A DNA stretch of 64,000 nucleotides. Origin: a virus. Its lineage: Duplodnaviria; Heunggongvirae; Uroviricota; Caudoviricetes. Position numbers and translations under genes: made by a program. Each line of letters begins with the position of its first letter. The first letter of the stretch is position 1. Below the pieces are notes generated by a model. That model did not search any database, was not told where the DNA came from, and saw nothing but the letters and a program-made list of their open reading frames with translations. The stretch lies in IMG/VR virus record IMGVR_UViG_3300031992_000025, positions 33,932 to 97,931 of that record; one strand, written 5' to 3'. Shown one piece after another: positions 12,848 to 28,400 of the stretch.

Positions 12848-12931
12848 AGAGCCTATACTTATTTCTTAATGGTTTTTGAAGGTTCGATTCCTTCATTACC
12901 CGCTTTGGGTGATGATATTAGTTAGGCCAAA
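12848..12931 (+). repeat. bipartite bulged-helix motif copy 4 enclosing a permuted tRNA minihelix
   Basis: AGAGCCTATACTTATTTCT + T-arm GAAGG-TTCGATT-CCTTC + acceptor 3' ATTACCC-G + CTTT + complementary 5' strand GGGTGAT + AGTTAGGCCAA. Confidence 0.65.
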
Positions 12932-12982
12932 GTTTATTTAGAAAGGAGAAAGCTTATGTAATTGTTAAAGGAGGACATAACG

Positions 12983-13234
12983 ATGAGTTATAGTCGAAAA
13001 CAATTTGATAAGCAAAAGCTAAAAAAGCTTGCAAAAAATAGCTGTAATGGCTGGAAAGGTGGCGCATATTATAGTCGCTATTTAGGCCATTATGTTCGTT
13101 GGTGGAAAAGTAAAGGTAGGAATAGTAGATATGCTTACTATAAAAAATTCTATCGCAAACGAATGAGAAGATTTGCAAACAAAAATGGTTGGTATTCTAA
13201 AAAAGAGTTCGATTTAATTTGGACTTGTTGGTAA
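12983..13234 (+). CDS. small basic Arg/Lys/Tyr/Trp-rich protein
   Basis: RBS AAAGGAGGACATAACG-ATG; 83 aa, highly basic. Confidence 0.4.
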   Translation: MSYSRKQFDKQKLKKLAKNSCNGWKGGAYYSRYLGHYVRWWKSKGRNSRYAYYKKFYRKRMRRFANKNGWYSKKEFDLIWTCW

Positions 13235-13239
13235 AATTA

Positions 13240-13253
13240 TTGTATAATATAAT
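13240..13253 (+). promoter_or_regulatory. extended -10 promoter TTGTATAATATAAT
   Basis: drives ncRNA candidate plus tRNA-Met cluster. Confidence 0.55.
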
Positions 13254-13254
13254 A

Positions 13255-13537
13255 GAGCTTACTTAACTGTTGGCTTAGAAGCAGCCATCATATAATGAGT
13301 GACCAACAGAACGTAAGGTGGTGCATCACTGAAATGAAGCGTCCCTAAATTACTGGATGAGAAATGGGACGTAAAACTGTCGGGAGTCAATAAAAATCTA
13401 TAATTTGGTAAGGGTGGTCAGAGTACCATTCTTAACTAAGAGCGTGCTGTAGGCACAGTAAATGCAGTATAATCAATGTTATAGAGTGCCCTAAGAGTCT
13501 TTGGCGTAGTAGCACATAAGTAAGTTCTTTATAACAT
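13255..13537 (+). ncRNA. candidate structured ncRNA (about 280 nt) transcribed from TTGTATAATATAAT promoter
   Basis: ORF-free, GC-richer than surroundings, directly upstream of tRNA-Met. Confidence 0.35.
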
Positions 13538-13613
13538 TGCGGGGTGCTAGCAGCGGTAGCTAACTGGGCTCATAACCCAGAGGTCGTAGGTTCGATTCCT
13601 ACCCCCGCGACCA
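13538..13613 (+). tRNA. tRNA-Met(CAT), initiator-like
   Basis: anticodon stem CTGGG/CCCAG (three G-C pairs next to loop) loop CTCATAA. Confidence 0.7.
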
Positions 13614-13617
13614 ATAT

Positions 13618-13732
13618 TGCATGATAGTCGAGTGGAAGAGACGACCGCATACATAAGCGGTGGACACAGCTGAAAGTAAATTCTAGATAGGAGTAAGCTA
13701 GAGCGGAGGTTCGATTCCTTCTCATGCGACCA
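13618..13732 (+). ncRNA. atypical 115-nt tRNA-like with 8-nt anticodon-type loop and about 45-nt extra arm
   Basis: acceptor TGCATGA/TCATGCG-A-CCA, T-arm GGAGG-TTCGATT-CCTTC, stem ACCGC/GCGGT with loop ATACATAA. Confidence 0.35.
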
Positions 13733-13734
13733 GA

Positions 13735-14010
13735 GGCAGGTTTTCATCGATTTTAGAGCCTCGCACATAAGAAAATCGATAGATAGACGGACTATGTACA
13801 AGATATGTCTAATCTAAAAAAGGAAAGGTTGTACACCAGAAATTTGGTCGGCTAGTTGGCGTAAACCTAGCAATAGGAGCGTTTGCAACAGACCCTCAAT
13901 AACTGCAGTGAGAGGGCAAGCACGAGCTTACAAGAAGAGACTGCGACGGATGAAATATTCCTAGAGCTCTTGAGCTGAGAGCACAAGGTTCACTGGGCAA
14001 AGAACAAAAC
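13735..14010 (+). ncRNA. candidate structured ncRNA (about 275 nt)
   Basis: ORF-free, 9-bp hairpin ATCGATTTT/AAAATCGAT with loop AGAGCCTCGCACATAAG. Confidence 0.3.
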
Positions 14011-14012
14011 AC

Positions 14013-14089
14013 GGACCGTTGGTGTAGTGGCCTTGCATGCTTCTCTGTCACGGAAGAGATCACGAGTTCGAATCTCGTACGGTCCGCCA
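14013..14089 (+). tRNA. tRNA-Asp(GTC)
   Basis: anticodon stem CTTCT/GGAAG loop CTGTCAC, acceptor GGACCGT/ACGGTCC. Confidence 0.75.
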
Positions 14090-14094
14090 TAGTT

Positions 14095-14202
14095 AGAGCC
14101 AATACTTATTTCTTAGCGAGGTAGCTCAGAGGTTAGAGCAGCAGATATTAATCTGAAGGTCGTAGGTTCAAGTCCTTCCCTTGCCAGGCCTAGTTTGGCC
14201 GA
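14095..14202 (+). repeat. bipartite bulged-helix motif copy 5 enclosing an anticodon-less tRNA-like unit
   Basis: AGAGCCAATACTTATTTCT ... GTTTGGCC (GCCAA/TTGGC covariation); insert 14115-14186 has acceptor, D-arm, T-arm and hairpin CAGAT-ATTA-ATCTG instead of anticodon loop. Confidence 0.65.
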
Positions 14203-14205
14203 TCT

Positions 14206-14282
14206 GGCTGGGTGGCCAAGCTGGTTAAGGCACAAAGCTCATACCTTTGGGATCGTCAGTTCAAATCTGACCCCAGCTACCA
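14206..14282 (+). tRNA. tRNA-Met/Ile2(CAT), elongator-type
   Basis: anticodon stem CAAAG/CTTTG loop CTCATAC. Confidence 0.7.
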
Positions 14283-14285
14283 TTT

Positions 14286-14363
14286 AGAGCTTATACTTAT
14301 TTCTTGAATGCTGTGGTTCGAATCCACCTTGCCTGTGGGGAGCGGAAAGTAGTTAAGCCAAAT
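14286..14363 (+). repeat. bipartite bulged-helix motif copy 6 enclosing tRNA 3'-fragment
   Basis: AGAGCTTATACTTATTTCT ... AGTTAAGCCAAAT (GCTTA/TAAGC covariation); insert has T-arm GTGG-TTCGAAT-CCAC. Confidence 0.65.
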
Positions 14364-14365
14364 AC

Positions 14366-14441
14366 GCACTCTTAACTCAACTGGGAGAGTGCTACCCTTA
14401 CAAGGTAGAAGTTGTAGGTCCGAGTCCTACAGAGTGCACCA
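14366..14441 (+). tRNA. tRNA-Val(TAC)
   Basis: anticodon stem CTACC/GGTAG loop CTTACAA. Confidence 0.8.
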
Positions 14442-14581
14442 TGGCATGTATGCAATTAGAAAACGCAACCTGCCGGTAAAGTAGGCGCTCCGAGTAGTCT
14501 CGAAGTAGGAGCTTTGTGGAATATTGCTAAATCGAGACTTTAGTAACAATATTCTAGGTGTAATTCCCACCATGCCAACCA
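14442..14581 (+). ncRNA. 140-nt tRNA-like RNA (acceptor TGGCATG/CATGCCA-A-CCA) with large internal insertion
   Basis: 7-bp terminal helix plus ACCA; T-loop-like GGTG-TAATTCC-CACC. Confidence 0.3.
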
Positions 14582-14585
14582 ATTT

Positions 14586-14660
14586 GCAGACGTAGGACAA
14601 TGGTTAGTCCATCGCCTTGCCAAGGCGAATATACGGGTTCGATTCCCGCCGTCTGCTCCA
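14586..14660 (+). tRNA. tRNA-Gly(GCC)
   Basis: anticodon stem TCGCC/GGCGA loop TTGCCAA. Confidence 0.7.
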
Positions 14661-14731
14661 CCAGGACAGATAAAGATTAGTTTCTTTATTAGGTTCTAAG
14701 GCTGGACAAATCGATAAAACCAGCCAGTTAT

Positions 14732-14806
14732 GCGGGTGTCGTCCAACGGTCAGGGCCTCTGCCTTCCAAGCAGAAGATACCGGTTCGATTCCGGCCACCC
14801 GCTCCA
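14732..14806 (+). tRNA. tRNA-Gly(TCC)
   Basis: anticodon stem TCTGC/GCAGA loop CTTCCAA. Confidence 0.75.
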
Positions 14807-14834
14807 TTAGCAGTATTTAAAAGGAGAAAAAACA

Positions 14835-14930
14835 ATGAAAACAATGAAACTCAGTCGTCTAAGTTGTCGAAGCTGTAAAGCTTGTTTTCGTTGTCTCAGT
14901 ATAAATACCGCGTTAGCTCAGCTGGATTAG
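14835..14930 (+). CDS. Cys-rich micro-ORF (31 aa, C-x2-C-x2-C-x2-C) reading into tRNA-Arg
   Basis: strong RBS AAAAGGAGAAAAAACA-ATG. Confidence 0.25.
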   Translation: MKTMKLSRLSCRSCKACFRCLSINTALAQLD

Positions 14931-14984
14931 AGCATTTGGCTACGAACCAAAAGGTCGAGGGTCCGAATCCTTCACGCGGTGCCA
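14907..14984 (+). tRNA. tRNA-Arg(ACG)
   Basis: anticodon stem TTTGG/CCAAA loop CTACGAA. Confidence 0.75.
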
Positions 14985-14985
14985 A

Positions 14986-15060
14986 GCTTTGGTAGCCAAG
15001 TGGTTAAGGCTTCGGTCTGCAACACCGACATCGTGGGTTCGAATCCCACCCAAAGCTCCA
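14986..15060 (+). tRNA. tRNA-Cys(GCA)
   Basis: anticodon stem TCGGT/ACCGA loop CTGCAAC. Confidence 0.8.
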
Positions 15061-15095
15061 AAATCTAGCTTTTTATGTTGTATAATATAATAGTT

Positions 15096-15173
15096 CCTCC
15101 CGTAGCTTAGTCAGGTTAAAGCGAACGCCTTATAAGCGTTAGATCGGTGGTTCAAATCCACCCAGGAGGACCA
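15096..15173 (+). tRNA. tRNA-Ile(TAT)
   Basis: anticodon stem AACGC/GCGTT loop CTTATAA; preceded by promoter TTGTATAATATAAT. Confidence 0.6.
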
Positions 15174-15248
15174 TCAAGCTAGTTATTTGCCTGTCAGAAG
15201 CCCTGTTAGAGGAAGCTGGGCTTATAATTAGCTTATTTTAATAAAGAG

Positions 15249-15845
15249 GTGCTTATGGAAATTAGATTTGTTGATGAAAGCAAAGAAGCCACTGGTAAAG
15301 TAAAAGAGGCACAAGAAGCATTAGATGAGCTCATTGATAAAAAGTCTGGTGAAGCTAAGGAAAATCCAGATTATTTAGCATTAATGGCAAAATATAAAAA
15401 AAGCTTAACTAATATTAATAAAGATGCTTGCGGCAGTCCTTGGGAATGGAGTTGGGGCTTAGACTATTTTGTTGAATTTCTTCGTTTTATGCAAGAATAT
15501 TATAAATTAGGCATTAATGTTTGGGCAATGGAGAGACGAGATGAAGATCCTAAAAAATATAAAAATTATCCAACTAGATATGAGAGTATTTCTAAAGCTC
15601 TTAGCTACTATGATAAGTGGCAAAATTTAGAAGAAGAATATATTACAGTAATTGATCACCCAGAGACACGAAAAACACATGAAAATGATGATGGAACAAT
15701 TACTGTTGATGATCTTGGCTTTCATTGTGAATATAAATTTGGTTCTGCTAAGAAAACATATAGAAAACTTCATAAGGATCAAAAGAAATATAAAAAGTTA
15801 TTTTTTAAAACTGTAATGAACTATTTAGAAGAATGGTGGGATTAA
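15249..15845 (+). CDS. hypothetical protein
   Basis: RBS AAAGAGGTGCTT-ATG. Confidence 0.5.
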   Translation: MLMEIRFVDESKEATGKVKEAQEALDELIDKKSGEAKENPDYLALMAKYKKSLTNINKDACGSPWEWSWGLDYFVEFLRFMQEYYKLGINVWAMERRDEDPKKYKNYPTRYESISKALSYYDKWQNLEEEYITVIDHPETRKTHENDDGTITVDDLGFHCEYKFGSAKKTYRKLHKDQKKYKKLFFKTVMNYLEEWWD

Positions 15846-15883
15846 TTAAGTCTCATTGAAAATCTCACTGAAGAAAACTTGCT

Positions 15884-15971
15884 GGAGGCATGGAGTAATG
15901 GTATCTCATCACCCTGCTAAGGTGACCATCGGGCAACTGATGTCCGCGTTCGAGTCGCGGTGCCTCCGCCA
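15884..15971 (+). tRNA. tRNA-Ser(GCT)
   Basis: anticodon stem TCACC/GGTGA loop CTGCTAA, long variable arm. Confidence 0.8.
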
Positions 15972-15973
15972 TA

Positions 15974-16306
15974 TTGAAAGGAAATTTTATGAAAGCATAT
16001 TTTATAGCAACTGCAAATGATTGTAAAAAAGATGAGCTTGGTTGGTTAGACTGGGGTAAATCTTTACGTGTTGTTGGTTTCTTTGAAGACATGGAAACTG
16101 CAAAAAAAGCAGTAGAAGAAAATTGGGGAGATATATATGAAGATGGTTATTATAAATATGCTATTATAGAAGAAAGAGAAGATGGTCTATATTCTCATTG
16201 TGAAAGCCCATTATTCTATAAGTGGGAAGGCACAATAAAAGATGGTGGCTATAAACAAATAGAAAGGCCAGAAGCTACAAAAGGCTTTTGTAATTTCACA
16301 ATCTAG
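15974..16306 (+). CDS. hypothetical protein
   Basis: RBS GAAAGGAAATTTT-ATG. Confidence 0.5.
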   Translation: MKGNFMKAYFIATANDCKKDELGWLDWGKSLRVVGFFEDMETAKKAVEENWGDIYEDGYYKYAIIEEREDGLYSHCESPLFYKWEGTIKDGGYKQIERPEATKGFCNFTI

Positions 16307-16308
16307 TT

Positions 16309-16392
16309 GCCCAGATGGTGGAATGGTAGACACCCGTGGCTTAGAACCACGTGCCGAAAGGCGTGCAGGTTCAAATCCTGTTCTGGGCACCA
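16309..16392 (+). tRNA. tRNA-Leu(TAG)
   Basis: anticodon stem CGTGG/CCACG loop CTTAGAA, long variable arm. Confidence 0.8.
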
Positions 16393-16399
16393 TTATTCT

Positions 16400-16485
16400 G
16401 CGCGAGTGATGAAATGGTAGACATGTGAGTCTAAGAAGCTCATGCCAGCAATGGTGTGTGGGTTCAAGTCCCACCTTGCGCACCA
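16400..16485 (+). tRNA. tRNA-Leu(AAG), type II, A34
   Basis: anticodon stem TGAGT/GCTCA loop CTAAGAA, long variable arm; anticodon assignment tentative. Confidence 0.5.
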
Positions 16486-16528
16486 TATTTATTTAAATTA
16501 AATTGTATAATATATAGAGGATTATTAT

Positions 16529-16858
16529 ATGTATACTTTACAAGAATTAATTGAAAAAGGCTATATTGATAGCATTAAAACTGATGGGACTCATCTTGGT
16601 GATGGTTATACCATTGTTGTAAAATTAAGTAGATATTCTATTGGCAGAATTACTATTGATGTTGGTATTGATGAATATTTAGATGATGCAGTTAGACTTA
16701 TTAATGGTATTATCAATATTCAAGAAGAATTAAATAAGGAAGCTACATCAAAAGAAAGTCCAATAGTTAGAAAAGCACCTGCAGAAGAATTAAAAGAAGT
16801 ACTTACTGGAACAGAAATTAAAGAAACAAAAATTAGCCCAGAGGATTATGCTGAATAA
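16529..16858 (+). CDS. hypothetical protein
   Basis: RBS AGAGGATTATTAT-ATG after promoter TTGTATAATATAT. Confidence 0.5.
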   Translation: MYTLQELIEKGYIDSIKTDGTHLGDGYTIVVKLSRYSIGRITIDVGIDEYLDDAVRLINGIINIQEELNKEATSKESPIVRKAPAEELKEVLTGTEIKETKISPEDYAE

Positions 16859-17031
16859 TGAAACATATAATTAAAGATGGTATTTATTATTTATATTCAG
16901 ATACTGATGCTGAACTAATGTCAATTACACTTACCAGTGAACCAGAAAATCAAGTTATTATAAAAACAGAGAATGAAGTTTATGCTGGTCCCGTAAAATT
17001 TATTAAATTTTCTGAAGATATAACGACAAAA
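16858..17031 (+). CDS. small hypothetical protein (57 aa)
   Basis: ATG overlapping previous stop (TAATGA). Confidence 0.35.
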
Positions 17032-17039
17032 TAAGCCGT

Positions 17040-17345
17040 ATATTATATACAGGGGTGTAAGTTATGTAGTAGACCCGCGGTCTTCAACCTCGAAAGTTGC
17101 TATGAATGACTACGAAACTGGTGCCTTATATTGGAAACATTATAAGTGCAGGTGATGATATCGGTGAACCCTGTCAAATGGGAATACCGAGGGAACGAAA
17201 GGCCCGTAGAGAGTAGATAATCACCCAGCTAAACAGAAATGTATGCTGAAGATGTACTCCAGACCACAAACAGAAATGGTGGTGAAAACCATAGTGGTAA
17301 GCAAAACCGGGAAACTAGGTGCAAGCCCTAGCACCCCTGCCAATA
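17040..17345 (+). ncRNA. candidate structured ncRNA (about 300 nt)
   Basis: ORF-free, GC-richer; contains ACAGAAATGG...AAAACCGGGAAACTAGG segments; 3' end ...GCACCCCTGCCAA. Confidence 0.35.
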
Positions 17346-17355
17346 TTATTATTTT

Positions 17356-17574
17356 ATGGAAGAATCTTATAGTTTATTATTAGAAATGACTATTGTTGGA
17401 ATAATGTGTGGACTTGTAGTAGCATTCTGCATATTCTTCTGTATAAAATATCATAAAGATAAAAGTTATGAAAAAGCCAGAGCAATTATCTTAGGTGGAA
17501 CTATTGGATTATCTCTACTAACTACAATATTTGAGATAGTTTGGTTCTGTATGTATCTTGGCTTACCAGTTTAG
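17356..17574 (+). CDS. small membrane protein
   Basis: two predicted TM helices. Confidence 0.4.
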   Translation: MEESYSLLLEMTIVGIMCGLVVAFCIFFCIKYHKDKSYEKARAIILGGTIGLSLLTTIFEIVWFCMYLGLPV

Positions 17575-17724
17575 GAGAGAATTATGTTAGCTATTGAACT
17601 ATTTGCAATATATGGAATTGGATTAGGAATTTTAAACCTACTTACTCTTGGATTAATACTATTCCATAAAATTAAAAAAGATTAATATTAGCATATAATT
17701 ATTTGCTAAATTAAAATGAGTTTT

Positions 17725-17797
17725 GAGCCGCCTCGCTCAGAAAACGCCCCCTCTGATCAAGGAAATAGATCAGGTTAAAGGTGGCGGCCTTTTTTAT
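17725..17797 (+). promoter_or_regulatory. long-range hairpin plus U-tract (terminator or regulatory RNA) upstream of secreted-protein operon
   Basis: GAGCCGCC ... GGCGGCC-TTTTTTAT with internal hairpin CTGATC..GATCAG. Confidence 0.35.
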
Positions 17798-17835
17798 AAA
17801 GCCACTATGAATTTTATTGAAGGAGACTTAGAAAA

Positions 17836-18450
17836 ATGAAATTAAGAAACAAAATTGCTGCTATTACAGCAGCCGCCATGTTAGCATTCACAGGTGTTGG
17901 TTTTGCTGCATGGACATTTACACAAGAAAGAGCAGCTGAAGTTGCAGTTACTGATAGAGTTTCAGTAGGCATTGAATTAAATGATAACTTTAAACTTTAC
18001 AATGCTGATGACGATGCTGAGATTTCTAACCTTTATATTATTTGTGATGCACCAGCTTCAGAAAGCGGTATTCTCGCTGGCGAAGGAGTTTACTGGGCAA
18101 GTGATGCTGCAGGTGCAACAAAAGTAGATGATGTTTATCTTAAAGGTACTCTTAAAAAAGTTGAAGAAGACAATATTTTAGATAAAGCTTCTGTTACAGT
18201 TACATTTGGTGCAACACATTCAATGACATCTACATATATTACAATTGGTGCTTTTACAGCCCCAGCCAATGTTGATGTTACAGTTGCCAATAATGCAGAT
18301 GTTCAAAGTGCTGACTTTAATTTACCAACATTAGCATATGTTGCAGCTAAAATTCCACATTCTGTTGATGAATTAACTGCTATGAATACAGCTCTTGCAA
18401 CTGAATTATCTGGTGCAAAAGTTAGTTTTACTGCTCAAATTATTGCTTAG
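17836..18450 (+). CDS. secreted protein with SipW-cognate (TasA/camelysin-class) signal peptide
   Basis: MKLRNKIAAITAAAMLAFTGVGFAAWTFTQ: hydrophobic core followed by G-x-G-F-A-A-W-T-F motif; directly upstream of SipW-like peptidase. Confidence 0.5.
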   Translation: MKLRNKIAAITAAAMLAFTGVGFAAWTFTQERAAEVAVTDRVSVGIELNDNFKLYNADDDAEISNLYIICDAPASESGILAGEGVYWASDAAGATKVDDVYLKGTLKKVEEDNILDKASVTVTFGATHSMTSTYITIGAFTAPANVDVTVANNADVQSADFNLPTLAYVAAKIPHSVDELTAMNTALATELSGAKVSFTAQIIA

Positions 18451-18463
18451 TTAGGAGATTAAT

Positions 18464-20503: not shown

Positions 20504-20534
20504 AATTGTATAATATAAATGAGGTTTATTTTAT

Positions 20535-21105: not shown

Positions 21106-21179
21106 AAATTTTTAAAATTTCTCAAAAAATATTCGCTAAAATAATACACAGCAAAAAAATTAAAAATTTGCTGTATAAT

Positions 21180-24130
21180 ATATAGTTAGTTACAGAGTAA
21201 TCTGTTTCTATAAGAGCTTAAAAAGCACCTGCACTATTAGGAACTCCCGAAAAGCCGAAAGTGAGGCTGTCGAAAGGCTAAGCGACTATAAATAAAATTT
21301 ACGTTAACATTAAGACCCGAAGAGTACTCACATCGACGGGCACTGCCGAAAGGCACTTAAAGGTGGGTTGGGGTTAAAGTTGTCTACCAATGTGAGAAAA
21401 ACAACTGCTTCCTTGGCTAATTTAGTCCGGTAGGAAGTTAATATAGTTTAGGTGGCCCAGGAGGTATTTAATTTCCCTCTCCCCAGAAAACTTGAGGTCA
21501 CCAGCCTATAATCAGGTATAGCTATGGCGCCTGGAATACTATCATTCTCGATAGTATAGTTTAAGAGGCTGCGTAATGCCGCCAACCCGTTGAGGTTATC
21601 TCTGGCGGGTTATGTAGAGCCGGAGTATTTACCGACTGGACCTGAGCAAATTGTCCACCTACTTAATTAAACTGCTCATTTTTCTTAAAAATCGATCGCA
21701 CTTCAGGGCACTTCCGCCTGTCCTAAGCATGACGTTAAACTGCAAATAATTTTTAGGAGGCGCTTATGAAGTATTACGTATTAGATGGCGAAATTAATAC
21801 TCGCCCTATTAAGGAAAAAATGTTCCGTTCAAGAGCTGCCGCTGAAAAAGCATTAGAAGTTATTCTCTATAGAGAGGACCTTCAAGTTCAAGACGACAGA
21901 TTTCCTTCAAAGCACACCGAAGAATTCGTGTGTGACAGATGCTCTAGATTCTTCATTCGTAGAATTGTCTACGGTGAGTAGAGCCTAGGTCAAGACACAA
22001 ACTAATTGGCCCAGTAATGGGAAAATGGAAAATCCGAAATCGTGGATTATACAGAGACTAGCGATCAAAGTTAGTTAGAAAGTCTTGATTTCTTAGTTAG
22101 TTACACGTTCGCGTGTTTCTATAAAACTTCCTGAAAATCTTTGGATAAAAACCAAAGCGAATGACTGCACAAGTTGTATTGAGTGCTTTCACGAGAAAAG
22201 GTACACTGGGATGCATGGGAAGTAAAATGTGATGCACCAGTAATTGTCGGTGGCGATATAAAACCGTTCAGCAGAGATACAACTCTTGACTGATAAAGGC
22301 CTTGTTGATGGGTGAGGTTAGTTACCTCTTCAGGTAGAAATGAATCAACTAATCTGCTCTCTTGCCGACTATTTTGGGTTAGACAGGCAAGTATAACAAA
22401 AGTTATAGTCTTAGCCCATGAGTTTATTAATTACATAGTAATATGTGATTATATATGAACGGCGCTTGCTTAGGCCTTAACAACTTAAGCTGGTGAGCAT
22501 TCAAGACAACTACGTTAAGTGAGTATTCTGAGGCATAATGAAATCTCACATATTCAGCGCTGATTGCCGACAAGTCATATGACTGGACATGAGCTTGTCC
22601 TTGAAAAGGCACAACGGGGTTTGGTGAGATGTCCACAACCAGTTATTAAAATCACTTGGGCAAAAATAAGCATAAGCCCATTAACAACGAGGGCACGTTG
22701 TAAAATAACGAGTTTAGCCGAGTCTTATAGACGGTATGGAGTCTGATATAAACCCATGCAACCCACATTCTTTATAGGAGGTATGGAACGCTAGAATAAA
22801 TACTTTGGGATCTAGCAATCTGGCCGACCTAATGGGTAGTTCAAGGTGTAACTCCTTGATTGGTCTCAAAAAGCCCACGTAGCAGTAACCAGGGCTAATA
22901 CTAAGACGTCAAAACGTGAAAGAGCCTGCTACACTGACATAGGATTCATTCCGAGTTGTGACCGCTTGAAAGCTGGCGGGAATGCACTGTGATGCACGTC
23001 AAAAATTCTCACAGACCTGCACAAGGCTAAGTGCTAAAAAATGTCCAGGCTTTTAGAAGGAAAACTATAAACCTCCAGGTGGCTCCTGGGTAAACTGTAA
23101 GAAACAAGCTGCCTTTAAACAGTATAAAGATTAGGGGTGCAGAACTATCGCTGAAGTTAGCCTGTAGGCAAAGCGTCAATATGATGTGTCAAAGTTGGTT
23201 GGTAAGAGCCTAATTCCGTTAATCGCAAGGAATGACTGCAATAATATACTTTGGTTTGGAATGACACAGTAATGAACCTAAAAACCCAACATGACAGTGC
23301 ATTATTTAATCGGATTTTGTCACCATGTAAATAATAATGCTTCGGGAAAGTGAACGAACTAGGAGCCCCCTCGCGCATTAAGTTGTATGCCAACGGCTGA
23401 GCATTAGAAATAATGTGAGGTGCATATTATTGCCGAGCATAGAGGAGATTGCCGATACCTCGACCAGGATATGGAAAGCAAAGTAGGGATGTGGATGTTC
23501 ACCAAGAAACTCTTTTAGATAAAATCGTGATTGTGGGTTTGGAGTTTCAAAGGTAATTATGCCTAATTAAGTAGATTAAAGAGTTTGGTCTCTGGGACGG
23601 CCATAGTGCTTAATTGAAAATAATAAATAGTTCCACCACCCAGTACTGAATGTTGTTTGATTAATTGTGATTGCCGCTGGACATGACGAAGGAGAGACAG
23701 CAATTAATTAAGTAAGTGGACTATCTCAGCCTATTAAACGCTAGTTTAGTTTAAAGCTATTAATTAATAGGTAATTAACAGAACTTAGTATTCTGTATAA
23801 AGAGATTAAAGCCGGGGAACTCCAGGACAGGTTTTATGAGTATCTTGCTAAGAAGAGAAAATAATGTAAAAAGGCCTGAGTAAGTTTAATCACCTGCAAT
23901 TTGGGGTTGAGCCCAGTTAGAAAACGTTAGTCAAAGTTAACGCTCTAACAATGCTTATTAATTTATTTGCCTGAGGCTATCTCACGCAGATTAATAAGAA
24001 GAGCCCAAGAAAATAGGGACCGAAAGGAAAAATATCCAACTTTGAACTCTTTTATATAAGAATAGTCTTAGCTAGTGAGTAGAGGGCTAAGATGAGGCAA
24101 AGCATGCGTGTGATAAGCCATTAAACTCTA
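21180..24130 (+). ncRNA. roughly 3-kb ORF-free, GC-enriched block: candidate giant structured ncRNA(s)
   Basis: promoter TGCTGTATAATATAT at 21170; stops in all six frames throughout; GC clearly above the about 30% genome background; only one short ORF (21766-21981) with RBS; ends at terminator near 24160. Confidence 0.45.
21766..21981 (+). CDS. small ORF (71 aa) embedded in the noncoding block
   Basis: RBS AGGAGGCGCTT-ATG; CDRCSRFF motif. Confidence 0.3.
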   Translation: MKYYVLDGEINTRPIKEKMFRSRAAAEKALEVILYREDLQVQDDRFPSKHTEEFVCDRCSRFFIRRIVYGE

Positions 24131-24157
24131 TTTTTTTATTTACTAGTAAAAATTTTA

Positions 24158-24188
24158 AAGGCCTATTTATATAGGTCTTTTTATTTTA
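24158..24188 (+). terminator. rho-independent terminator
   Basis: AAAGGCCTATTTATATAGGTCTTTTTATTTT. Confidence 0.55.
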
Positions 24189-24209
24189 TTTATTGTATAA
24201 TATTATAAT

Positions 24210-24395
24210 ATGGTTTTCAATTATAGAGTTATTTGGACAGATATAAATAAAAATAGGCAGGATTTTGTAGATATGGATTCACAAAATATTGCACTTTTTA
24301 TAGCAAAACAAAAAGTGAGACAAGGTATGCAAAATGTTATTATTCAACTTACACTAGTTGGAGACTATGATAAGCAAGAGGAGATAGAAGTATAA
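24210..24395 (+). CDS. hypothetical protein
   Basis: follows promoter TTGTATAATATTATAAT. Confidence 0.4.
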   Translation: MVFNYRVIWTDINKNRQDFVDMDSQNIALFIAKQKVRQGMQNVIIQLTLVGDYDKQEEIEV

Positions 24396-24396
24396 T

Positions 24397-24708
24397 ATGA
24401 AATTTATTAAAAAACCAATTCCAATTGATGCAGTTAAATGCATTAAAGAAAATGAAGATGAAATTATTAGTCTTTTAGAGTCAGGAACTACAGAATGGGA
24501 AAAAGTATTAGATGATGATTATAATGTTATTGGATTTAATATTCATTCTTGGGAAGGTGTAGATCCAGTCTATTATGATTTTAGTAAAAATAAAAATAGT
24601 GGCGGAAAAGCTTACTGGGTTATTAAAGGGTTAAAAGGTGAGTGCTACCCTTGTGTAGCAGATGATGCTGAAGATGCTCCTCTTGGGTACGAGCTCTTTA
24701 AAGAATAA
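24397..24708 (+). CDS. hypothetical protein
   Basis: translationally coupled (TAATATG). Confidence 0.4.
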   Translation: MKFIKKPIPIDAVKCIKENEDEIISLLESGTTEWEKVLDDDYNVIGFNIHSWEGVDPVYYDFSKNKNSGGKAYWVIKGLKGECYPCVADDAEDAPLGYELFKE

Positions 24709-24822
24709 TTAAAAAAATATTTACAAAAAATAAAAAATATCGTATAATATTAATGTGAATGAAAAAACATTCGCTAAATTAAATAAGTGAATTGCAAACT
24801 AATATATAACAAAGCAATTCAC

Positions 24823-24895
24823 AAGAGCCTATACTTATTTCTACAAATAAAAATGAAGATCTAAGAACAAAGCTAGTTAGGCCAAAGTAAAAATT
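24823..24895 (+). repeat. bipartite bulged-helix motif copy 7
   Basis: AGAGCCTATACTTATTTCT ... AGTTAGGCCAAAG; preceded by 9-bp hairpin GTGAATTGC..GCAATTCAC. Confidence 0.65.
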
Positions 24896-25035
24896 TTAAG
24901 AAAAAGGAGAAAAGAAGCATGTTAAATTTAGTTGCTAAGACAGTTAAACCTACAGCAACAGCCAGACCAGCAGTCTTGGTAAATTTTGATATGCTTACAA
25001 ACTTCTAAAATCTTAAAAACCGAAATTAAAAGATT

Positions 25036-25066
25036 CCGCAGGCGTTTGTAAGCGTCTGCGGTTTTT
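25036..25066 (+). terminator. rho-independent terminator
   Basis: CCGCAGGCG-TTTGTAA-GCGTCTGCGG-TTTTT. Confidence 0.65.
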
Positions 25067-25072
25067 ATTTCT

Positions 25073-25150
25073 GGGGGCGCATGTTCTAAGGGCAAGCGAG
25101 ACTGCTTTGCAAGCAGACTGTTGTGGGTTCGATTCCCTTCGTTTCCACCA
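25073..25150 (+). tRNA. tRNA-Ala(TGC)-like
   Basis: acceptor GGGGGCG/CGTTTCC with G3-U70 wobble, anticodon loop TTTGCAA, enlarged D region. Confidence 0.5.
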
Positions 25151-25203
25151 ATATGTAATAATATTTGCAGCGCAAGTTGTGTCCCAAATATTTGCTAAAT
25201 TAA

Positions 25204-25217
25204 TTGTATAATATAAT
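25204..25217 (+). promoter_or_regulatory. extended -10 promoter TTGTATAATATAAT
   Basis: upstream of HNH endonuclease gene. Confidence 0.55.
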
Positions 25218-25229
25218 GAGGCATTTATT

Positions 25230-25835
25230 ATGAGAAAAACAATTGATGATATTAAAAAACAAATTTGGGAGAATTCATTGCATACCTGTGAATATTTAAG
25301 TGGTGAAGCAAAACCAGGTAAAAAAATTCATGTAAGATGCATAATTCATAATGAAGAGTTTGATGTAAGTTATGATACTATTCGTAAATCTACTAGAAAA
25401 CATCATATTTGTCCTAAATGTAAAGCTGAAGATGATGCAAAAGATAAGGTAAAACTTATTTGCGATTATTGTGGTAAAGAGTATTATGTTGCAAAAAGTA
25501 AGTCTACTAAATCAGATTATCATTTCTGTTGTAGAGCTTGTAAAGATTCTGCACAAAAGATTAATTCTGGAGAAAAATTTAATGAATTAAGACCAGATCA
25601 TTATGGAACTGGAACAACAACTTACAGAGATGCAGCATTTATAGCTTATCCACATAAATGTGCAATTTGTGGTTGGGCTGAGGATGAAGATGTGCTTGAA
25701 GTTCATCATATTGATGAAAATAGAGCAAATGCAAGTTTAGACAATTTAATTATATTATGTCCAACTTGTCATAGAAAATTATCTATTCATAAATATTATC
25801 TTACTGATGATAGAAAAAGCATTATTAAAAAATAA
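25230..25835 (+). CDS. HNH homing endonuclease with Cys-rich zinc-binding N-terminal region
   Basis: EVHHIDENRANASLDNLIILCPTCH (HNH motif); multiple CxxC pairs. Confidence 0.65.
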   Translation: MRKTIDDIKKQIWENSLHTCEYLSGEAKPGKKIHVRCIIHNEEFDVSYDTIRKSTRKHHICPKCKAEDDAKDKVKLICDYCGKEYYVAKSKSTKSDYHFCCRACKDSAQKINSGEKFNELRPDHYGTGTTTYRDAAFIAYPHKCAICGWAEDEDVLEVHHIDENRANASLDNLIILCPTCHRKLSIHKYYLTDDRKSIIKK

Positions 25836-25846
25836 TGTAAATTTAT

Positions 25847-25923
25847 GGGCTATTAGTTCAGTCTAGGAGAACGCCCGCCCTGCAAGCGGGAGGTCATCGG
25901 AGCGGAGCCGATATGGTCCACCA
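25847..25923 (+). tRNA. tRNA-Ala(TGC)-like with atypical T-loop
   Basis: acceptor GGGCTAT/ATGGTCC incl. G3-U70, anticodon stem CCCGC/GCGGG loop CCTGCAA, T-loop AGCGGAG. Confidence 0.4.
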
Positions 25924-25927
25924 AATT

Positions 25928-26001
25928 GCCCCTGTAGTACAATGGTAGTACAGTTGACTTGTAATCATCCGATGGCCGTTCGATTCGACCCTGGGGCACC
26001 A
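25928..26001 (+). tRNA. tRNA-Thr(TGT)
   Basis: acceptor GCCCCTG/CTGGGGC, anticodon loop CTTGTAA. Confidence 0.7.
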
Positions 26002-26005
26002 AAAT

Positions 26006-26081
26006 GGGGCTGTAGCTCAATTGGGAGAGCGCCGCGTTAGCATCGCGGAGGTTGCGGGATCGTTCCCCGTTAGTTCCACCA
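26006..26081 (+). tRNA. tRNA-Ala(AGC), A34
   Basis: anticodon stem CCGCG/CGCGG loop TTAGCAT; acceptor GGGGCTG/TAGTTCC with G3-U70. Confidence 0.5.
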
Positions 26082-26166
26082 ATTCATGCCATGGAAGGAA
26101 AACCATATAAACCCTTACAGCTTCGTTAATATCAGACGTAGGTATTAAAGAGTTAAGCTGAATTAT

Positions 26167-26243
26167 CCGGAGTTAGTTCAGCTTGGTAGAACACCTGATT
26201 TGGGATCAGGGGGTCGTGGGTTCGAATCCCGCATTCCGGACCA
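26167..26243 (+). tRNA. tRNA-Pro(TGG)
   Basis: anticodon stem CCTGA/TCAGG loop TTTGGGA, acceptor CCGGAGT/ATTCCGG. Confidence 0.75.
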
Positions 26244-26247
26244 TTAT

Positions 26248-26370
26248 AGAACCTGTGCTTATTTCTAATAGGGCAAGCAGGTTGTCGCTGGTTCGAATCC
26301 AGCCTTCTCCACCATTAATTGGGGAAGTAGCTCAGTTGGTAGAGCACCCGCAAAATATTAGCCAGGTCAT
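26248..26370 (+). repeat. bipartite bulged-helix motif copy 8 enclosing permuted tRNA halves (3' half, linker, 5' half)
   Basis: AGAACCTGTGCTTATTTCT + T-arm GCTGG-TTCGAAT-CCAGC + CTTCTCC-A-CCA (ends 26314) + TTAATT + GGGGAAG-TA-GCTC-AGTTGGTA-GAGC-A-CCCGC (26321-26351) + partner GCCAGGT (26361-26367); acceptor strands GGGGAAG/CTTCTCC fully complementary (G3-U70). Confidence 0.65.
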
Positions 26371-26373
26371 ATT

Positions 26374-26449
26374 GCACCTTTAGCTCAGTTGGGAGAGCAT
26401 ATCCTTGACGTGGATAGGGTCGTAGGTTCGAGCCCTGCAAGGTGCACCA
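26374..26449 (+). tRNA. tRNA-Val(GAC)
   Basis: anticodon stem TATCC/GGATA loop TTGACGT. Confidence 0.75.
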
Positions 26450-26453
26450 TTAT

Positions 26454-26531
26454 GCTCCTCTAGCCCAACTGGCAGAGGCGGTAAGCTCAAACCTTACTTA
26501 TGTCTCGGTTCGAATCCGAGGGGGAGTACCA
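26454..26531 (+). tRNA. tRNA with anticodon CAA but short (type I) variable arm
   Basis: anticodon stem GTAAG/CTTAC loop CTCAAAC; acceptor GCTCCTC/GGGGAGT with G-U pairs. Confidence 0.45.
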
Positions 26532-26576
26532 AAAATGCAAAATTTGCAAAAATGTTATACTAAAGGAGAAAAAGTT

Positions 26577-26657
26577 ATGATGCAAATGAACAGAAAAAAT
26601 ATCAAGAGCAGAAAAACCAAAAGATTTGGTTCATTTAGTCATGGCTTAATTCATTAA
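26577..26657 (+). CDS. micro-ORF (26 aa, basic)
   Basis: RBS AAAGGAGAAAAAGTT-ATG; followed by terminator. Confidence 0.25.
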   Translation: MMQMNRKNIKSRKTKRFGSFSHGLIH

Positions 26658-26690
26658 GATTATAAAGGACGTTAGTTAACGTAATATAAT

Positions 26691-26720
26691 GCCGAGTGGT
26701 TAAGCCGCCCGGCATTTTTT
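26691..26720 (+). terminator. rho-independent terminator
   Basis: GCCGAGTGG-TTAAG-CCGCCCGGC-ATTTTTT. Confidence 0.55.
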
Positions 26721-26863
26721 CTAGGATTACGTTAGCGCGACGGACAAGAATTACTTATGCGAATTCCTTCTTAGAAAAAAATCTCCTTGTCTTCTAATTG
26801 AATAAGATATAGACCTCCTAAGTCTATGATCAGAGTTTAAATCTCTGCAAGGAGTCCATATAT

Positions 26864-26938
26864 ACCGCCATAGTACAACGGATAGTACAGTAGCCTTCTA
26901 AGCTTCTGATCCGGGTTCGATTCCTGGTGGCGGTGCCA
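26864..26938 (+). tRNA. tRNA-Arg(TCT)
   Basis: anticodon loop CTTCTAA, acceptor ACCGCCA/TGGCGGT. Confidence 0.7.
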
Positions 26939-26940
26939 TT

Positions 26941-27010
26941 AGAGCCTATGCTTATTTCTAGCTCAACGAGAGCGTCAAACATTTAATTTGAAGGTATAGC
27001 TAGGCCAAAA
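26941..27010 (+). repeat. bipartite bulged-helix motif copy 9
   Basis: AGAGCCTATGCTTATTTCT ... TAGCTAGGCCAAAA (AC to GC paired by GT to GC change). Confidence 0.65.
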
Positions 27011-27014
27011 TTAT

Positions 27015-27092
27015 GCACCGTCGGTCGCAAGGTGTGACACTCGACTTTTAATCGAGGTATCAGGATGGGTTCGATTCCCTCACGGTGCACCA
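27015..27092 (+). tRNA. tRNA-Lys(TTT)
   Basis: anticodon stem CTCGA/TCGAG loop CTTTTAA. Confidence 0.75.
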
Positions 27093-27096
27093 ATAT

Positions 27097-27171
27097 GCAC
27101 CCTTAGCCAAGCGGTATGGCCTACGACTTTTAATCGTATTATCAGGTGTTCGACTCACCTAGGGTGTACCA
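27097..27171 (+). tRNA. tRNA-Lys(TTT), second copy
   Basis: anticodon stem TACGA/TCGTA loop CTTTTAA. Confidence 0.75.
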
Positions 27172-27174
27172 GTA

Positions 27175-27252
27175 TGCTCCGTTGGCGCAATTAGGTAGCG
27201 CAAGATACTCTTAATATCTGGGTTACAGGTTCGATTCCTGTACGGAGCACCA
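27175..27252 (+). tRNA. tRNA-Lys(CTT)
   Basis: anticodon stem AGATA/TATCT loop CTCTTAA. Confidence 0.8.
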
Positions 27253-27310
27253 ATAAAATATTTTGCATTTGACTTAAAATTATTTGCTAAATTAATTGAG
27301 GTTCAAAATT

Positions 27311-28123
27311 ATGGCAAATTATATAAGTCACACTGCTTGAAATAAAGGCTTAACCAAAGAAACCGATAGTCGTTTAGCAAAAACAGCTTTATTACAAAGT
27401 AAAGTTAAAAAAGGTAAACCAAATCATCCACAAACTGCTGAAACAAGAGCAAAAATATCAGCTGCTAGAAAAAAATACATAGCAGAGCATCCAGATCAAG
27501 TTCCATTTAAAATGCACCATTCATCTAAAGAAAGTTTTCCAGAAAGATATTTTAGACTTTGACTTAAAAAAGAAAAATTATTAGAAGCACAAGAACTACA
27601 GATTGATAGATATACATTAGATTTTGCTTGGCCAGATAAAAAGATTTATTTAGAAATTGATGGAAATCAGCATAAGTTAGATTGAATGCAAGAGCATGAT
27701 AAAATTAGAACTGATTATTTAAATACTTTAGGTTGAACATGTATTGGTAGAATAGATTGATCTTGATATAAAGCTTTGTGCACAAAAGAAAAGCATAAAT
27801 ATTTACAAAACATAAAAGCAGCAATTGAGCAAGCTAGTTTTATAGAAAAATTTATATCAAAAAAAGACTTAGCTTTACAAAAACGTCAAAAGCTTATTGA
27901 AGCTGGATTTGTTATGAAAGATGGCAGAACAGCTCCATGAATGTTATCTAATAATGAATGGCAAAGACGTTTACAGCTAATACTAGATAGTAATATAGAC
28001 TTAACAAAATTTGGCTGGAAAGAACAAGTACAAAAAATAACGAATTTAACTCGTAGCCAATTAAACGATACAATAGAGCATTTTCCAGAACATTTTACAA
28101 AAATCTATATTAGAGGCAAATAA
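27311..28123 (+). CDS. homing endonuclease-like protein: NUMOD3-type DNA-binding motifs plus DUF559/Vsr-like PD-(D/E)XK nuclease domain (about 10 in-frame TGA)
   Basis: HTAWNKGLTKETDSRLAKTA and KPNHPQTAETRAKISAARKK (NUMOD3-like); DFAWPDKKIYLEIDGNQH...LGWTCIGRIDW; TGA codons fall at conserved Trp-like positions (GW motif). Confidence 0.65.
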
Positions 28124-28205
28124 ATTATTGTATAATATATTGTGGTTGAGATATGAGTTTTGGTAGTTTTGTGCCACGCATGCGGAAATAAAAACTACTA
28201 TATAT

Positions 28206-28281
28206 GCCGACTTAGCTCAGCTGTTAGAGCAATTCACTAGTAATGAATAGGTCGGGGGTTAGAATCCCTCAGTCGGCACCA
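28206..28281 (+). tRNA. tRNA-Thr(AGT), A34
   Basis: anticodon stem ATTCA/TGAAT loop CTAGTAA, acceptor GCCGACT/AGTCGGC, T-loop TTAGAAT. Confidence 0.6.
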
Positions 28282-28283
28282 TC

Positions 28284-28400
28284 AGAGCCCATGCTTATTT
28301 CTTTCGGCTTGTAACCGGGTGGTCGTTGGTTCGAATCCAACTCGGCGCTGTATAGTGTCGATAGCTCAGCGGTAGAGCACCTTATTTAGCTGGGCCTTTT
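28284..28400 (+). repeat. bipartite bulged-helix motif copy 10 enclosing a permuted tRNA-Thr(TGT)-like gene
   Basis: AGAGCCCATGCTTATTTCT + anticodon arm TTCGG-CTTGTAA-CCGGG + T-arm GTTGG-TTCGAAT-CCAAC + acceptor 3' TCGGCGC-T + TGTATA + acceptor 5' GTGTCGA-TA-GCTC-AGCGGTA-GAGC + partner GCTGGGCC-TTTTT; acceptor strands pair 7/7 (two G-U). Confidence 0.65.

Follow-up and report, generated by a model that had tools for sequence, protein, structure and literature searches.

What are the transfer RNA (tRNA)-like sequences that lie, with their 3' portion in front of their 5' portion, inside a repeated bulged helix of a phage genome? They occur in a stretch of 64,000 nucleotides (nt), hereafter the window, that corresponds to positions 33,932 to 97,931 of the IMG/VR virus record IMGVR_UViG_3300031992_000025 (Caudoviricetes) and is part of a low-GC phage genome. 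A preliminary description counted ten copies of the enclosing motif, and offered a tRNA maturation or rearrangement system, or else a mobile tRNA-targeting cassette, as explanation. Our analysis points elsewhere, in that the units probably encode small phage RNAs of one family, which share the build of the bacterial Y RNAs but are independent of Ro60; a terminal handle is constant among them, whereas the module that it encloses (the cargo) varies and is in many cases a tRNA mimic or a piece of one.

Twelve such units are found in the window, all on the + strand (Table 1). Here, a pattern search with the 5' arm AGAGCCTATRCTTATTTCT gave 11 copies on this strand against 0.05 expected, and a twelfth, slightly diverged copy at 5245 brings the earlier count of ten to 12. 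A relaxed handle search of the window revealed no extra copies above the reversed-sequence background. The handle has the form G[A]NNNNN[U]RCU-UAUUUCU…AGY-NNNNN-C (the 5' arm can also be written G[A]NNNNN[Y]RCU), and its 3' arm, AGY-NNNNN-C, is located 50-120 nt downstream and pairs 9/9 with its own 5' arm in 12/12 units, among which there are eight variants of the stem sequence. Geometrically, the stem comprises 9 bp, its 5' strand bears two bulges of 1 nt each, 5 bp apart, and a single-stranded UAUUUCU tract follows. Inspection of the 12 units by eye showed no consistent base pairing between this tract and the cargo's 3' side.

As had been reported, three of the units (at 12849, 26249, and 28285) contain a circularly permuted tRNA-like module, with the 3' portion before the 5' portion and an acceptor pairing of 7/7; moreover, all elements of the earlier description are present, to within 1-4 nt of the positions given there. 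In unit 10, we observe an anticodon-like stem (GCAGG/CCCGC), a T-arm, a 7-bp acceptor stem (CUUCUCC-ACCA / GGGGAAG, with a G3-U70 pair), a 6-nt linker (UUAAUU), and a D-arm. Unit 12 is made up of a small hairpin (loop CUUGUAA), a T-arm, a closed 7-bp acceptor stem (UCGGCGC / GUGUCGA, 7/7 with two G-U pairs), and a D-arm; it is the end of the array and is followed by a U-run. The element at 11745-11833, which is outside any handle, can be folded into an acceptor stem and a T-arm that enclose a closed hairpin at the centre. Other handle-free aberrant tRNA-like elements were noticed at 10721-10795, 12557-12668, 13618-13729 (tRNA score of 31.9 bits, with a long insertion), and 25847-25920 (Rfam, 44.2 bits, with no ARAGORN call), and like that at 11745-11833 these are acceptor and T-arm frames with a replaced or expanded central region.

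Table 1. Handle units and other features of the window (positions counted from the first nucleotide of the window; copy numbers are those of the preliminary description; R1, score given by model R1).
Feature	Position	Strand	Description	Basis
Unit 1 (73 nt)	5052-5124	+	Handle GAAACUA[C]GCU-UAUUUCU…AGCUAGUUC; irregular hairpin cargo	Arms 9/9; R1 26.4 bits
Unit 2 (102 nt)	5245-5346	+	Diverged core UAUUUCC; long hairpin cargo; absent from the preliminary description	Arms 9/9 including one G-U; fold
Unit 3 (57 nt)	5401-5457	+	Short cargo; TATAAT-like box directly 5'	Arm pairing; R1 32.7 bits
Unit 4 (50 nt)	5547-5596	+	Short AU hairpin with UGG loop; HEAT+TerD gene ~95 nt downstream; promoter-like site of its own at 5482-5511	R1 35.6 bits
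Unit 5 (61 nt)	11919-11979	+	Between tRNA-Gln and tRNA-Trp; cargo of two small hairpins	Pairing, fold; R1 33.7 bits
Unit 6 (80 nt)	12849-12928	+	T-arm and 7-bp loop-closed acceptor-like stem (AUUACCC / GGGUGAU), a tRNA 'top-half' minihelix; copy 4	R1 48.7 bits, E = 7.9e-7
Unit 7 (105 nt)	14096-14200	+	Whole non-permuted tRNA-like cargo with shortened anticodon loop; copy 5	Arms 9/9; ARAGORN tRNA-??? at 14114-14187 with 2-nt 'anticodon'; Rfam tRNA 49 bits
Unit 8 (73 nt)	14287-14359	+	T-arm-like hairpin and imperfect stem; copy 6	Pairing, fold; R1 31.9 bits
Unit 9 (59 nt)	24825-24883	+	Stand-alone; own promoter-like site at 24720-24748	Arm pairing
Unit 10 (120 nt)	26249-26368	+	YrlA-like tRNA mimic; copy 8	Rfam YrlA match; fold; R1 105.6 bits
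Unit 11 (65 nt)	26942-27006	+	D-arm-like hairpin and anticodon-arm-like hairpin (loop CAUUUAA); directly upstream of tRNA-Lys(UUU) genes	Pairing, fold
Unit 12 (112 nt)	28285-28396	+	YrlA-like tRNA mimic; copy 10	Rfam YrlA match; R1 106.7 bits
677-aa protein	5692-7725	+	N-terminal HEAT/ARM-like helical repeats and C-terminal TerD-like domain
Kinase/metallophosphatase/Rnl1-type RNA ligase fusion	2121-4406	+	Pnkp-like architecture	Pfam AAA_33, Metallophos, RNA_lig_T4_1 (3.9e-38)
tRNA operon region 1	10158-16485	+	26 tRNA genes, units 5-8, several aberrant tRNA-like elements, HAD_SAK_2 gene
HAD_SAK_2 RNA-repair protein gene	10898-11314		Within tRNA operon region 1
tRNA operon region 2	25073-28281	+	12 tRNA genes, with units 10 and 11 inside; unit 12 directly after the last tRNA
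Thg1-like enzyme gene	32863-33789

To follow the family beyond the window, IMG/VR was scanned for the 5' arm with three of the covarying stem positions left free, and this gave 75 loci, many of them on contigs of 220-250 kb. With a complementary 3' arm required, ~130 units were validated, as against 9 in reversed-sequence controls. When the invariant 9-mer CTTATTTCT alone was used as anchor in the window and its relatives, the complement of the unit's own arm was found downstream in 127 of 176 cases, as opposed to 5-11 for decoy arms. In all, related viral contigs hold ~84 distinct unit sequences with 30 stem variants, likewise located in tRNA operons, and the handle consensus of the 84 units is uA-G[A]GCCUA[U]RCU-UAUUUCU … u-AGYUAGGC-C-aaa. 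As for the cargo, short AU hairpins, frequently with a UGGG loop, form the majority, the other classes being D-arm-like plus anticodon-arm-like hairpins, T-arm/acceptor minihelices, and whole tRNA-like sequences. A further class, of 112-143 nt, has its elements in the same order as units 10 and 12 of the window. More conspicuously, cargo hairpins with a 7-nt CUNNNAA loop number 18 against 1.06 expected, and in eight of these the loop is CUUUUAA, the same as in this phage's own tRNA-Lys(UUU) genes.

For the tRNA-like class, 17 units were aligned with five helices imposed, namely the handle, the T and D stems, and two stems that resemble an anticodon stem (5 bp) and an acceptor stem (7 bp). Standard pairs occupy 95.5% of the cells in this alignment, compared with ~35% (31-47%) when the partners are slid, and 24 of the 30 pairs have changed on both sides; none of 500 shuffles matched the observed pairing values. 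Since all the tRNA-like helices co-vary together with the handle, these are functional structured RNAs and not decaying tRNA genes. The argument of the preliminary description against random decay is thereby borne out, and by the comparison it had itself proposed, as acceptor complementarity is kept in the relatives rather than lost as in deletion remnants, with all seven acceptor pairs co-varying. Its view of how the handle is joined to the tRNA needs an amendment. In most relatives, the helix does not bridge the tRNA ends exactly at the junction of D-arm and anticodon arm; it replaces the anticodon loop and prolongs an anticodon-like stem of 3-5 bp. Most tRNA-like units have no anticodon loop, a single sub-class possesses an additional small hairpin whose 7-nt loop is anticodon-like, and in most of the aligned units the anticodon-like stem runs into the handle via long asymmetric internal loops.

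Outside viral contigs the family is scarce: among the at least 120 bacterial and archaeal genome loci listed, validated units occur in two only (L118 and L077), the rest being nearly all chance single matches, and at least one of the two resembles a phage contig. The unit of L077 (Clostridium sp. CAG:288 scaffold FR898180.1, 130 kb; minus strand, 6100-6146) is the sole validated one on a large bacterium-assigned scaffold among these loci, and could stem from a prophage or a wrongly binned phage contig, or could hint at the host. In one viral locus (L050, IMGVR_UViG_3300028797_000094), the unit at 10895-11072 has a complete second unit (10964-11017) nested in its acceptor-closing loop, right after the encoded ACCA. 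A 94-nt group ending in ggttttgtt (L012, L016, and others) was set aside as a source of handle units, as its 3' end is not AGY…C. Readings of the handle as a kink-turn (K-turn) or as a clustered regularly interspaced short palindromic repeat (CRISPR) were dropped on sequence and geometry grounds.

A structural counterpart of the permuted module was found among known RNAs. At the gathering threshold, Rfam gave tRNAs alone in the window. In a permissive scan, the YrlA model (RF02553) matched at 26280-26348 with 38.1 bits (E = 5e-6; over model positions 24-84) and at 28317-28385 with 33.5 bits (E = 1e-4; over model positions 23-88). These matches cover the tRNA-like module only; the outer model (positions 1-22 and 89-114 of 114) was never matched, and the threshold of 69 bits was not reached. 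The module itself has the YrlA composition, that is, a T stem-loop, a closed acceptor-like stem-loop, a D stem-loop, and an anticodon-like stem formed from the flanking segments, with the RNA ends leaving the module at the place of the anticodon loop. YrlA is defined by a 5' GNCGAAN0-1G Ro60 site, a V/T/AS/D tRNA-like module, and a position no more than 4 kb from a same-strand TROVE gene (PMC4201824), and is a circularly permuted tRNA mimic with a closed acceptor (PMC4201824; bioRxiv 10.1101/312249). As such a molecule has already been described, the 'permuted tRNA' observation has a direct known counterpart. Y RNAs, moreover, occur as several per genome, are co-transcribed with tRNAs, and are cut by RNase P and have CCA added when the acceptor is 7 bp (PMC4201824). 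An origin of YrlA from a dimeric tRNA transcript and its likeness to algal permuted pre-tRNAs have also been discussed (bioRxiv 10.1101/312249). Here, we noticed that our own covariance model of the tRNA-like units also scores the junctions of adjacent ordinary tRNA genes (11633-11690, 26395-26504, and 27104-27224), where the T-arm and acceptor of one tRNA are followed by the acceptor and D-arm of the next. This is consistent with a dimeric-tRNA origin, and shows how such modules could arise from tRNA dimers.

Directly downstream of units 1-4 is the open reading frame (ORF) of a 677-aa protein. It belongs to no Pfam family and matches no PDB chain by sequence, and a Foldseek search of the PDB gave nothing significant; the beta-sandwich fold of TerD was recovered for this ORF. 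A divergent Ro60 was considered and rejected, as the HEAT-repeat ring of TROVE with a vWA domain was not found. Full-length structural relatives in BFVD come from a gut siphovirus, Campylobacter virus IBB35, and Lactobacillus phage LpeD, and there are more than 500 metagenomic homologs, the best 120 of which are 54-88% identical. Three of four homologs have a basic N-terminal half. Wherever an RNA-derived locus contains a homolog (19 of 19 loci), the gene is bracketed by units on the same strand, with a short unit 55-160 nt upstream, and most of these loci have tRNA-like units downstream too. Approached from the opposite side, loci fetched by protein similarity alone have a unit no more than 400 nt upstream on the same strand in 21 of 21 cases (the position of unit 4 in the window) and downstream in 14 of 21, with none on the opposite strand, and they include contigs whose diverged handles were missed by the RNA pattern. 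In the literature that we searched, nothing links TerD-domain phage proteins with tRNA-like RNAs, and phage TerD is mentioned only as a component of Ter exclusion systems (PMC7824862).

The pairing of this protein with a helix-U(A/C)YUUCU handle recurs in six further lineages, represented by the phages Weasels2, RcXuper, WXIN, RpAliso, LpeD, and XacN1, so that with the window the gene linkage extends over seven. An hhalign comparison joined the window-clade and distant homolog groups through the C-terminal region (99.2%, E = 3.9e-19), and none of the distant homologs in cultured phages has a TROVE domain. YrlA-like cargo was detected in three of the six, and was scored both with Rfam and with a covariance model built only from window-clade units. 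In Rhodococcus phage Weasels2, the homolog (gp266) is in a tRNA cluster, ~3 kb from RtcB, and is followed by four tandem units. These consist of a co-varying 7-bp helix, then UACUUCN and the cargo, and have a conserved 3' flank of the CGCUCACC type; one of the four has a YrlA-like module (Rfam, 26.4 bits; window-clade model, 56.1 bits, E = 2.6e-8). In Rhodobacter phage RcXuper, a two-piece transfer-messenger RNA (tmRNA) and then handle units that contain CAU(A/C)CUUCUA, among them a YrlA-like module (40.7 and 58.7 bits, respectively), are placed directly upstream of the homolog, and a gene for the nucleotidyltransferase RlaP adjoins. The arrangement in Ruegeria phage RpAliso is similar, with two YrlA-like modules (Rfam, 34.7 and 42.3 bits; window-clade model, 55.7 and 39.4 bits) and an adjoining tRNA nucleotidyltransferase gene. 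Upstream of the homolog in Mycobacterium phage WXIN there are five tandem units of the form GCAGGCUC-[helix]-UUUCAU…UUUCCCUGC, and in the gap upstream of it in Lactobacillus phage LpeD and Xanthomonas phage XacN1 there are repeats of GCUUACUUCUA and UUCCUUCUAAA, respectively. The two-piece (permuted) tmRNAs of RcXuper (L221, 890-1306) and RpAliso (L225, 1703-1991) score 106-130 bits, lie in a gap left unannotated in the records, and directly precede the handle units and the TerD-family gene.

Phages that infect at least four bacterial phyla or classes have thus conserved the pairing of protein family and handle, with a range that takes in phages of Actinobacteria, Alpha- and Gammaproteobacteria, and Firmicutes as well as gut jumbo phages. 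RNA-repair or nucleotidyltransferase genes are nearby in five of the seven lineages (the window, Weasels2, RcXuper, RpAliso, and XacN1), these being RtcB, Thg1, and a 2'-5' ligase in Weasels2 and a nucleotidyltransferase in XacN1. Judging from this bidirectional, cross-phylum gene linkage, the 677-aa protein is most likely the partner of the handle, taking the place of Ro60.

Another way to view the units is as processing or punctuation hairpins, that is, as cleavage, stabiliser, or terminator signals with incidental cargo, the upstream unit being a cis-leader of the 677-aa gene. RNase III sites punctuate T7 transcripts. It would fit such a role that the units fill the slots between tRNAs and flank a gene, that a U-run comes after the last unit of the array and several upstream units in the relatives end in terminator-like U-runs, and that most units carry a short AU-rich hairpin only. 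Nevertheless, the tRNA-like modules co-vary in every helix, the closed acceptor included, and are conserved across phages of different phyla, the invariant single-stranded UAYUUCU and fixed bulges suggest sequence-specific recognition, and the stand-alone units have their own predicted promoters. We therefore regard this explanation as unlikely, though it survives best among the alternatives.

Somewhat less probable again is that the units are canonical Y RNAs of the YrlA/YrlB type, with a TROVE partner elsewhere in the phage or in the host, and with the handle as a diverged Ro60 site. Besides the YrlA model matches, a bulged terminal stem with a conserved 5' strand is as in Y RNAs (PMC4201824), a few jumbo phages do encode a ROT/TROVE protein with a tRNA-like partner (PMC7824862), and the window covers 64 kb of genome. 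The Ro60-binding CGAA motif, however, resides in the 5' strand of the terminal stem, as also in the characterised Thermus phage Ro60 with its CGAA-bearing Yrl RNAs (PMC12135203), and a motif of this type is required and present in every validated bacterial or phage Ro60 partner (PMC4201824; PMC12135203), whereas GNCGAAN0-1G (CGAA) is absent from the handle consensus of the 84 units. YrlA genes, too, are normally within 4 kb of rsr on the same strand, yet no TROVE domain was found in the scanned ORFs of the window, and tblastn with human Ro60 gave nothing, either in the window or in the fetched loci (1.6 Mb). This query was validated by Pfam (TROVE, 172 bits; vWA_Ro60, 257 bits), and as a positive control it retrieved 358 phage Ro60 records; apart from one partial match, those listed have E values of ~1e-76 to 1e-113. 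The complete genome of Weasels2 combines this RNA design with a lack of Ro60 (tblastn, best E = 0.78), and the failure of the outer YrlA model to match tells in the same direction. Because two defining features were tested and neither was found, the units do not belong to YrlA/Ro60 as defined.

A third alternative, close to the original proposal, is that these are split or permuted tRNA genes whose transcripts are cut and religated into functional tRNAs by the phage kinase/phosphatase/ligase. In the permuted tRNA genes of Cyanidioschyzon merolae and Thermofilum, a bulge-helix-bulge (BHB) motif is cut by the splicing endonuclease and a full anticodon loop is regenerated. The permuted order with its 7/7 acceptor complementarity is what such genes would show, some units encode ACCA after the 3' acceptor strand, the 7-bp stems could be RNase P substrates, and the window contains a Pnkp-like ligase. 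Likeness of YrlA to algal permuted pre-tRNAs is also on record (bioRxiv 10.1101/312249). Even so, we consider this very improbable. The two 1-nt bulges of the handle are on one strand and do not make a BHB, which has two 3-nt bulges on opposite strands 4 bp apart; most tRNA-like units lack an anticodon loop, and in most of the aligned ones joining the termini does not regenerate an anticodon stem with a 7-nt loop. Furthermore, the majority of units have non-tRNA cargo on the same handle, a splicing endonuclease domain was not found in the scanned ORFs, and the large tRNA set of the phage already covers these anticodons. Least credible of all is a mobile DNA element, either similar to a miniature inverted-repeat transposable element (MITE) or the tRNA-targeting cassette first suggested, that inserts at tRNA genes and captures tRNA fragments: for all its many copies with imperfect inverted-repeat ends, tRNA-adjacent location, and nearby homing-endonuclease genes (HNH at 25230-25835 and GIY-YIG at 29043-29546), there are no constant terminal inverted repeats, the arms differ between copies (30 variants) while their pairing is kept and so fit an RNA structure rather than transposase-recognised ends, all copies have one orientation relative to transcription, orthologous units hold their position relative to the TerD-family gene across diverged phages, and the cargo helices are under structural selection.

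Returning to the Y-RNA-like small RNAs that we favour, how might they work? The best σ70-like sites in the scanned regions (TTTACA, a spacer of 17-18 nt, and TATAAT; 11/12 matches) are directly upstream of the stand-alone units at 5547 and 24825. The RNAs would be transcribed within the phage tRNA operons or from promoters of their own, would probably be freed by the same processing that frees the tRNAs, and may be expected to accumulate as stable RNAs. The handle would most likely be bound by the co-encoded helical-repeat/TerD-like protein in the role of Ro60, and the tRNA-like modules would then recruit, titrate, or present substrates to tRNA-directed enzymes during a conflict over tRNA integrity; candidates for these enzymes are anticodon nucleases of the host, or else the repair and processing enzymes that the phage itself encodes. 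A part in tRNA cleavage or repair is a speculation, prompted by the neighbouring genes and by the excess of anticodon-loop mimics. Put in its most specific form, large tRNA-rich phages would have a second, Ro60-independent Y-RNA-like ribonucleoprotein, in which a ~700-aa protein on a helix-UAYUUCU handle carries a panel of tRNA mimics. This panel would comprise L-shaped elbow/acceptor mimics, minihelices, and anticodon-arm mimics, the last above all of tRNA-Lys(UUU), and would serve as decoys or adaptors, be it against tRNA cleavage by the host or for phage repair; we advance this version tentatively, as a possibility that falls short of what we would call probable.

Several points weigh against this account. 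TerD domains are otherwise tied to Ter stress and exclusion systems and not to RNA (PMC7824862). Binding of the handle by the protein is argued from conserved gene linkage, and that linkage could reflect a shared location in tRNA regions, while the unit just upstream could be a cis-acting leader or attenuator of the 677-aa gene. LpeD and XacN1 show handle-type repeats only, tRNA-like cargo not being detected there, and a decoy or adaptor function is speculative. In addition, the window is 64 kb of a genome of perhaps ~230 kb, going by the largest related contigs, and a Ro60 gene may be located elsewhere in the phage or in the host.

With regard to the genome setting, ARAGORN finds 38 tRNA genes in the window, in two clusters at 10.1-16.5 kb and 25.0-28.3 kb. 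The phage does encode the kinase/phosphatase/RNA ligase that had been noted, as a single fusion gene ~650 nt upstream of unit 1. Alongside the RNA-repair genes there are also a PhoH-like ATPase (7886-8797, in a frame that requires three TGA codons to be read as sense) and an SPFH/flotillin-like protein of 523 aa (31229-32800). By megablast of 20 kb against GenBank phages, the sole match was a 55-nt tRNA stretch in Lak phages, and the phage therefore has no close sequenced relative. From ~45 kb on, runs of same-frame ORFs are split by TGA alone (45111-52484, for instance, amounts to 2457 codons with 11 in-frame TGAs), and thus the genome is TGA-recoded. Read-through of TGA was noted in 27311-28123, 29055-30295, and ~35.5-62.3 kb, and the larger genes before ~27 kb are mostly without TGA. 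ARAGORN gives no tRNA(UCA) in the window; there is one in the related locus L050, at 3606-3680.

Amid the tRNA cluster there are ORFs of the homing-endonuclease type, which besides the HNH and GIY-YIG genes include an unclassified, TGA-rich, endonuclease-like one (27311-28123) with seven TGAs and a 62%-identical relative in another locus (L004). A stretch of ~3 kb (21180-24160) has a promoter-like TGTATAAT at one end and a terminator-like hairpin at the other, with a GC content above its surroundings and no long ORF, just a single one of 71 codons at 21766-21981. Considered as a possible large non-coding RNA, it had no Rfam match, no conservation in the fetched loci, and an ordinary folding energy.

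To our knowledge, Y RNAs are known only as partners of Ro60. What the phage family adds is a comparable RNA design without Ro60, which is maintained by strong covariation, has a different conserved handle, and is genetically tied to a different, uncharacterised protein family; the new aspect, then, is that Y-RNA-like mimics of tRNA have a new handle and probably a new protein partner as well. It may also represent a new counter-defence layer in the arms race over tRNA cleavage and repair. A function would be given to unannotated gaps beside the gene in six phage genomes, and to a protein now annotated as hypothetical, 'cytoplasmic protein', or 'tellurium-resistance-like'. As the system is present in cultured phages (Weasels2, RcXuper, RpAliso, LpeD, and XacN1), one protein and one short RNA motif are directly testable.

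Among known systems, the two-piece tmRNA is alike in its permuted tRNA-like domain, with the T-arm and CCA-bearing acceptor strand upstream of the 5' strand, but the window units are without a tag reading frame or pseudoknots; the Rfam tmRNA_permuted model reaches 28.5 bits on them against a threshold of 47, over the T-arm and acceptor only, and ARAGORN reports no tmRNA. With the permuted tRNA genes of C. merolae and Thermofilum, the units share a leading 3' half, a linker-closed acceptor, and termini that pair near the anticodon region, and they differ in having no BHB, usually no anticodon loop, and a handle that is common to non-tRNA cargo. In T4, Pnkp and Rnl1 repair tRNA-Lys cut by PrrC, and phage tRNAs replace or evade cleaved host tRNAs. 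The window resembles such tRNA counter-defence (T4-type; PMC7824862) in its big tRNA arrays together with RNA ligase, kinase-phosphatase, Thg1, and nucleotidyltransferase genes, and in the over-representation of tRNA-Lys(UUU) loop mimics, though the handle RNAs are not decoding tRNAs and would act as decoys or adaptors. The closest resemblance is to YrlA and other Y RNAs. These have in common with the phage units a modular RNA, a bulged terminal stem with a conserved 5' strand, a tRNA-mimic module (T-arm, D-arm, closed acceptor-like, and anticodon-like stems), multiple paralogs per genome that include simple hairpins, co-transcription with tRNAs beside RNA-repair genes, and, in some, a 7-bp acceptor with CCA as in M. 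smegmatis YrlA (PMC4201824; bioRxiv 10.1101/312249). In contrast, the phage handle has UAYUUCU, unrelated to the GNCGAA/CGAA Ro60 site, and the nearby gene encodes a helical-repeat and TerD protein with no TROVE domain, while the copy number in the window is far higher (12 in 64 kb) and the range of cargo wider, extending to minihelices, D-arm plus anticodon-arm halves, whole tRNA-like sequences, and a nested unit.

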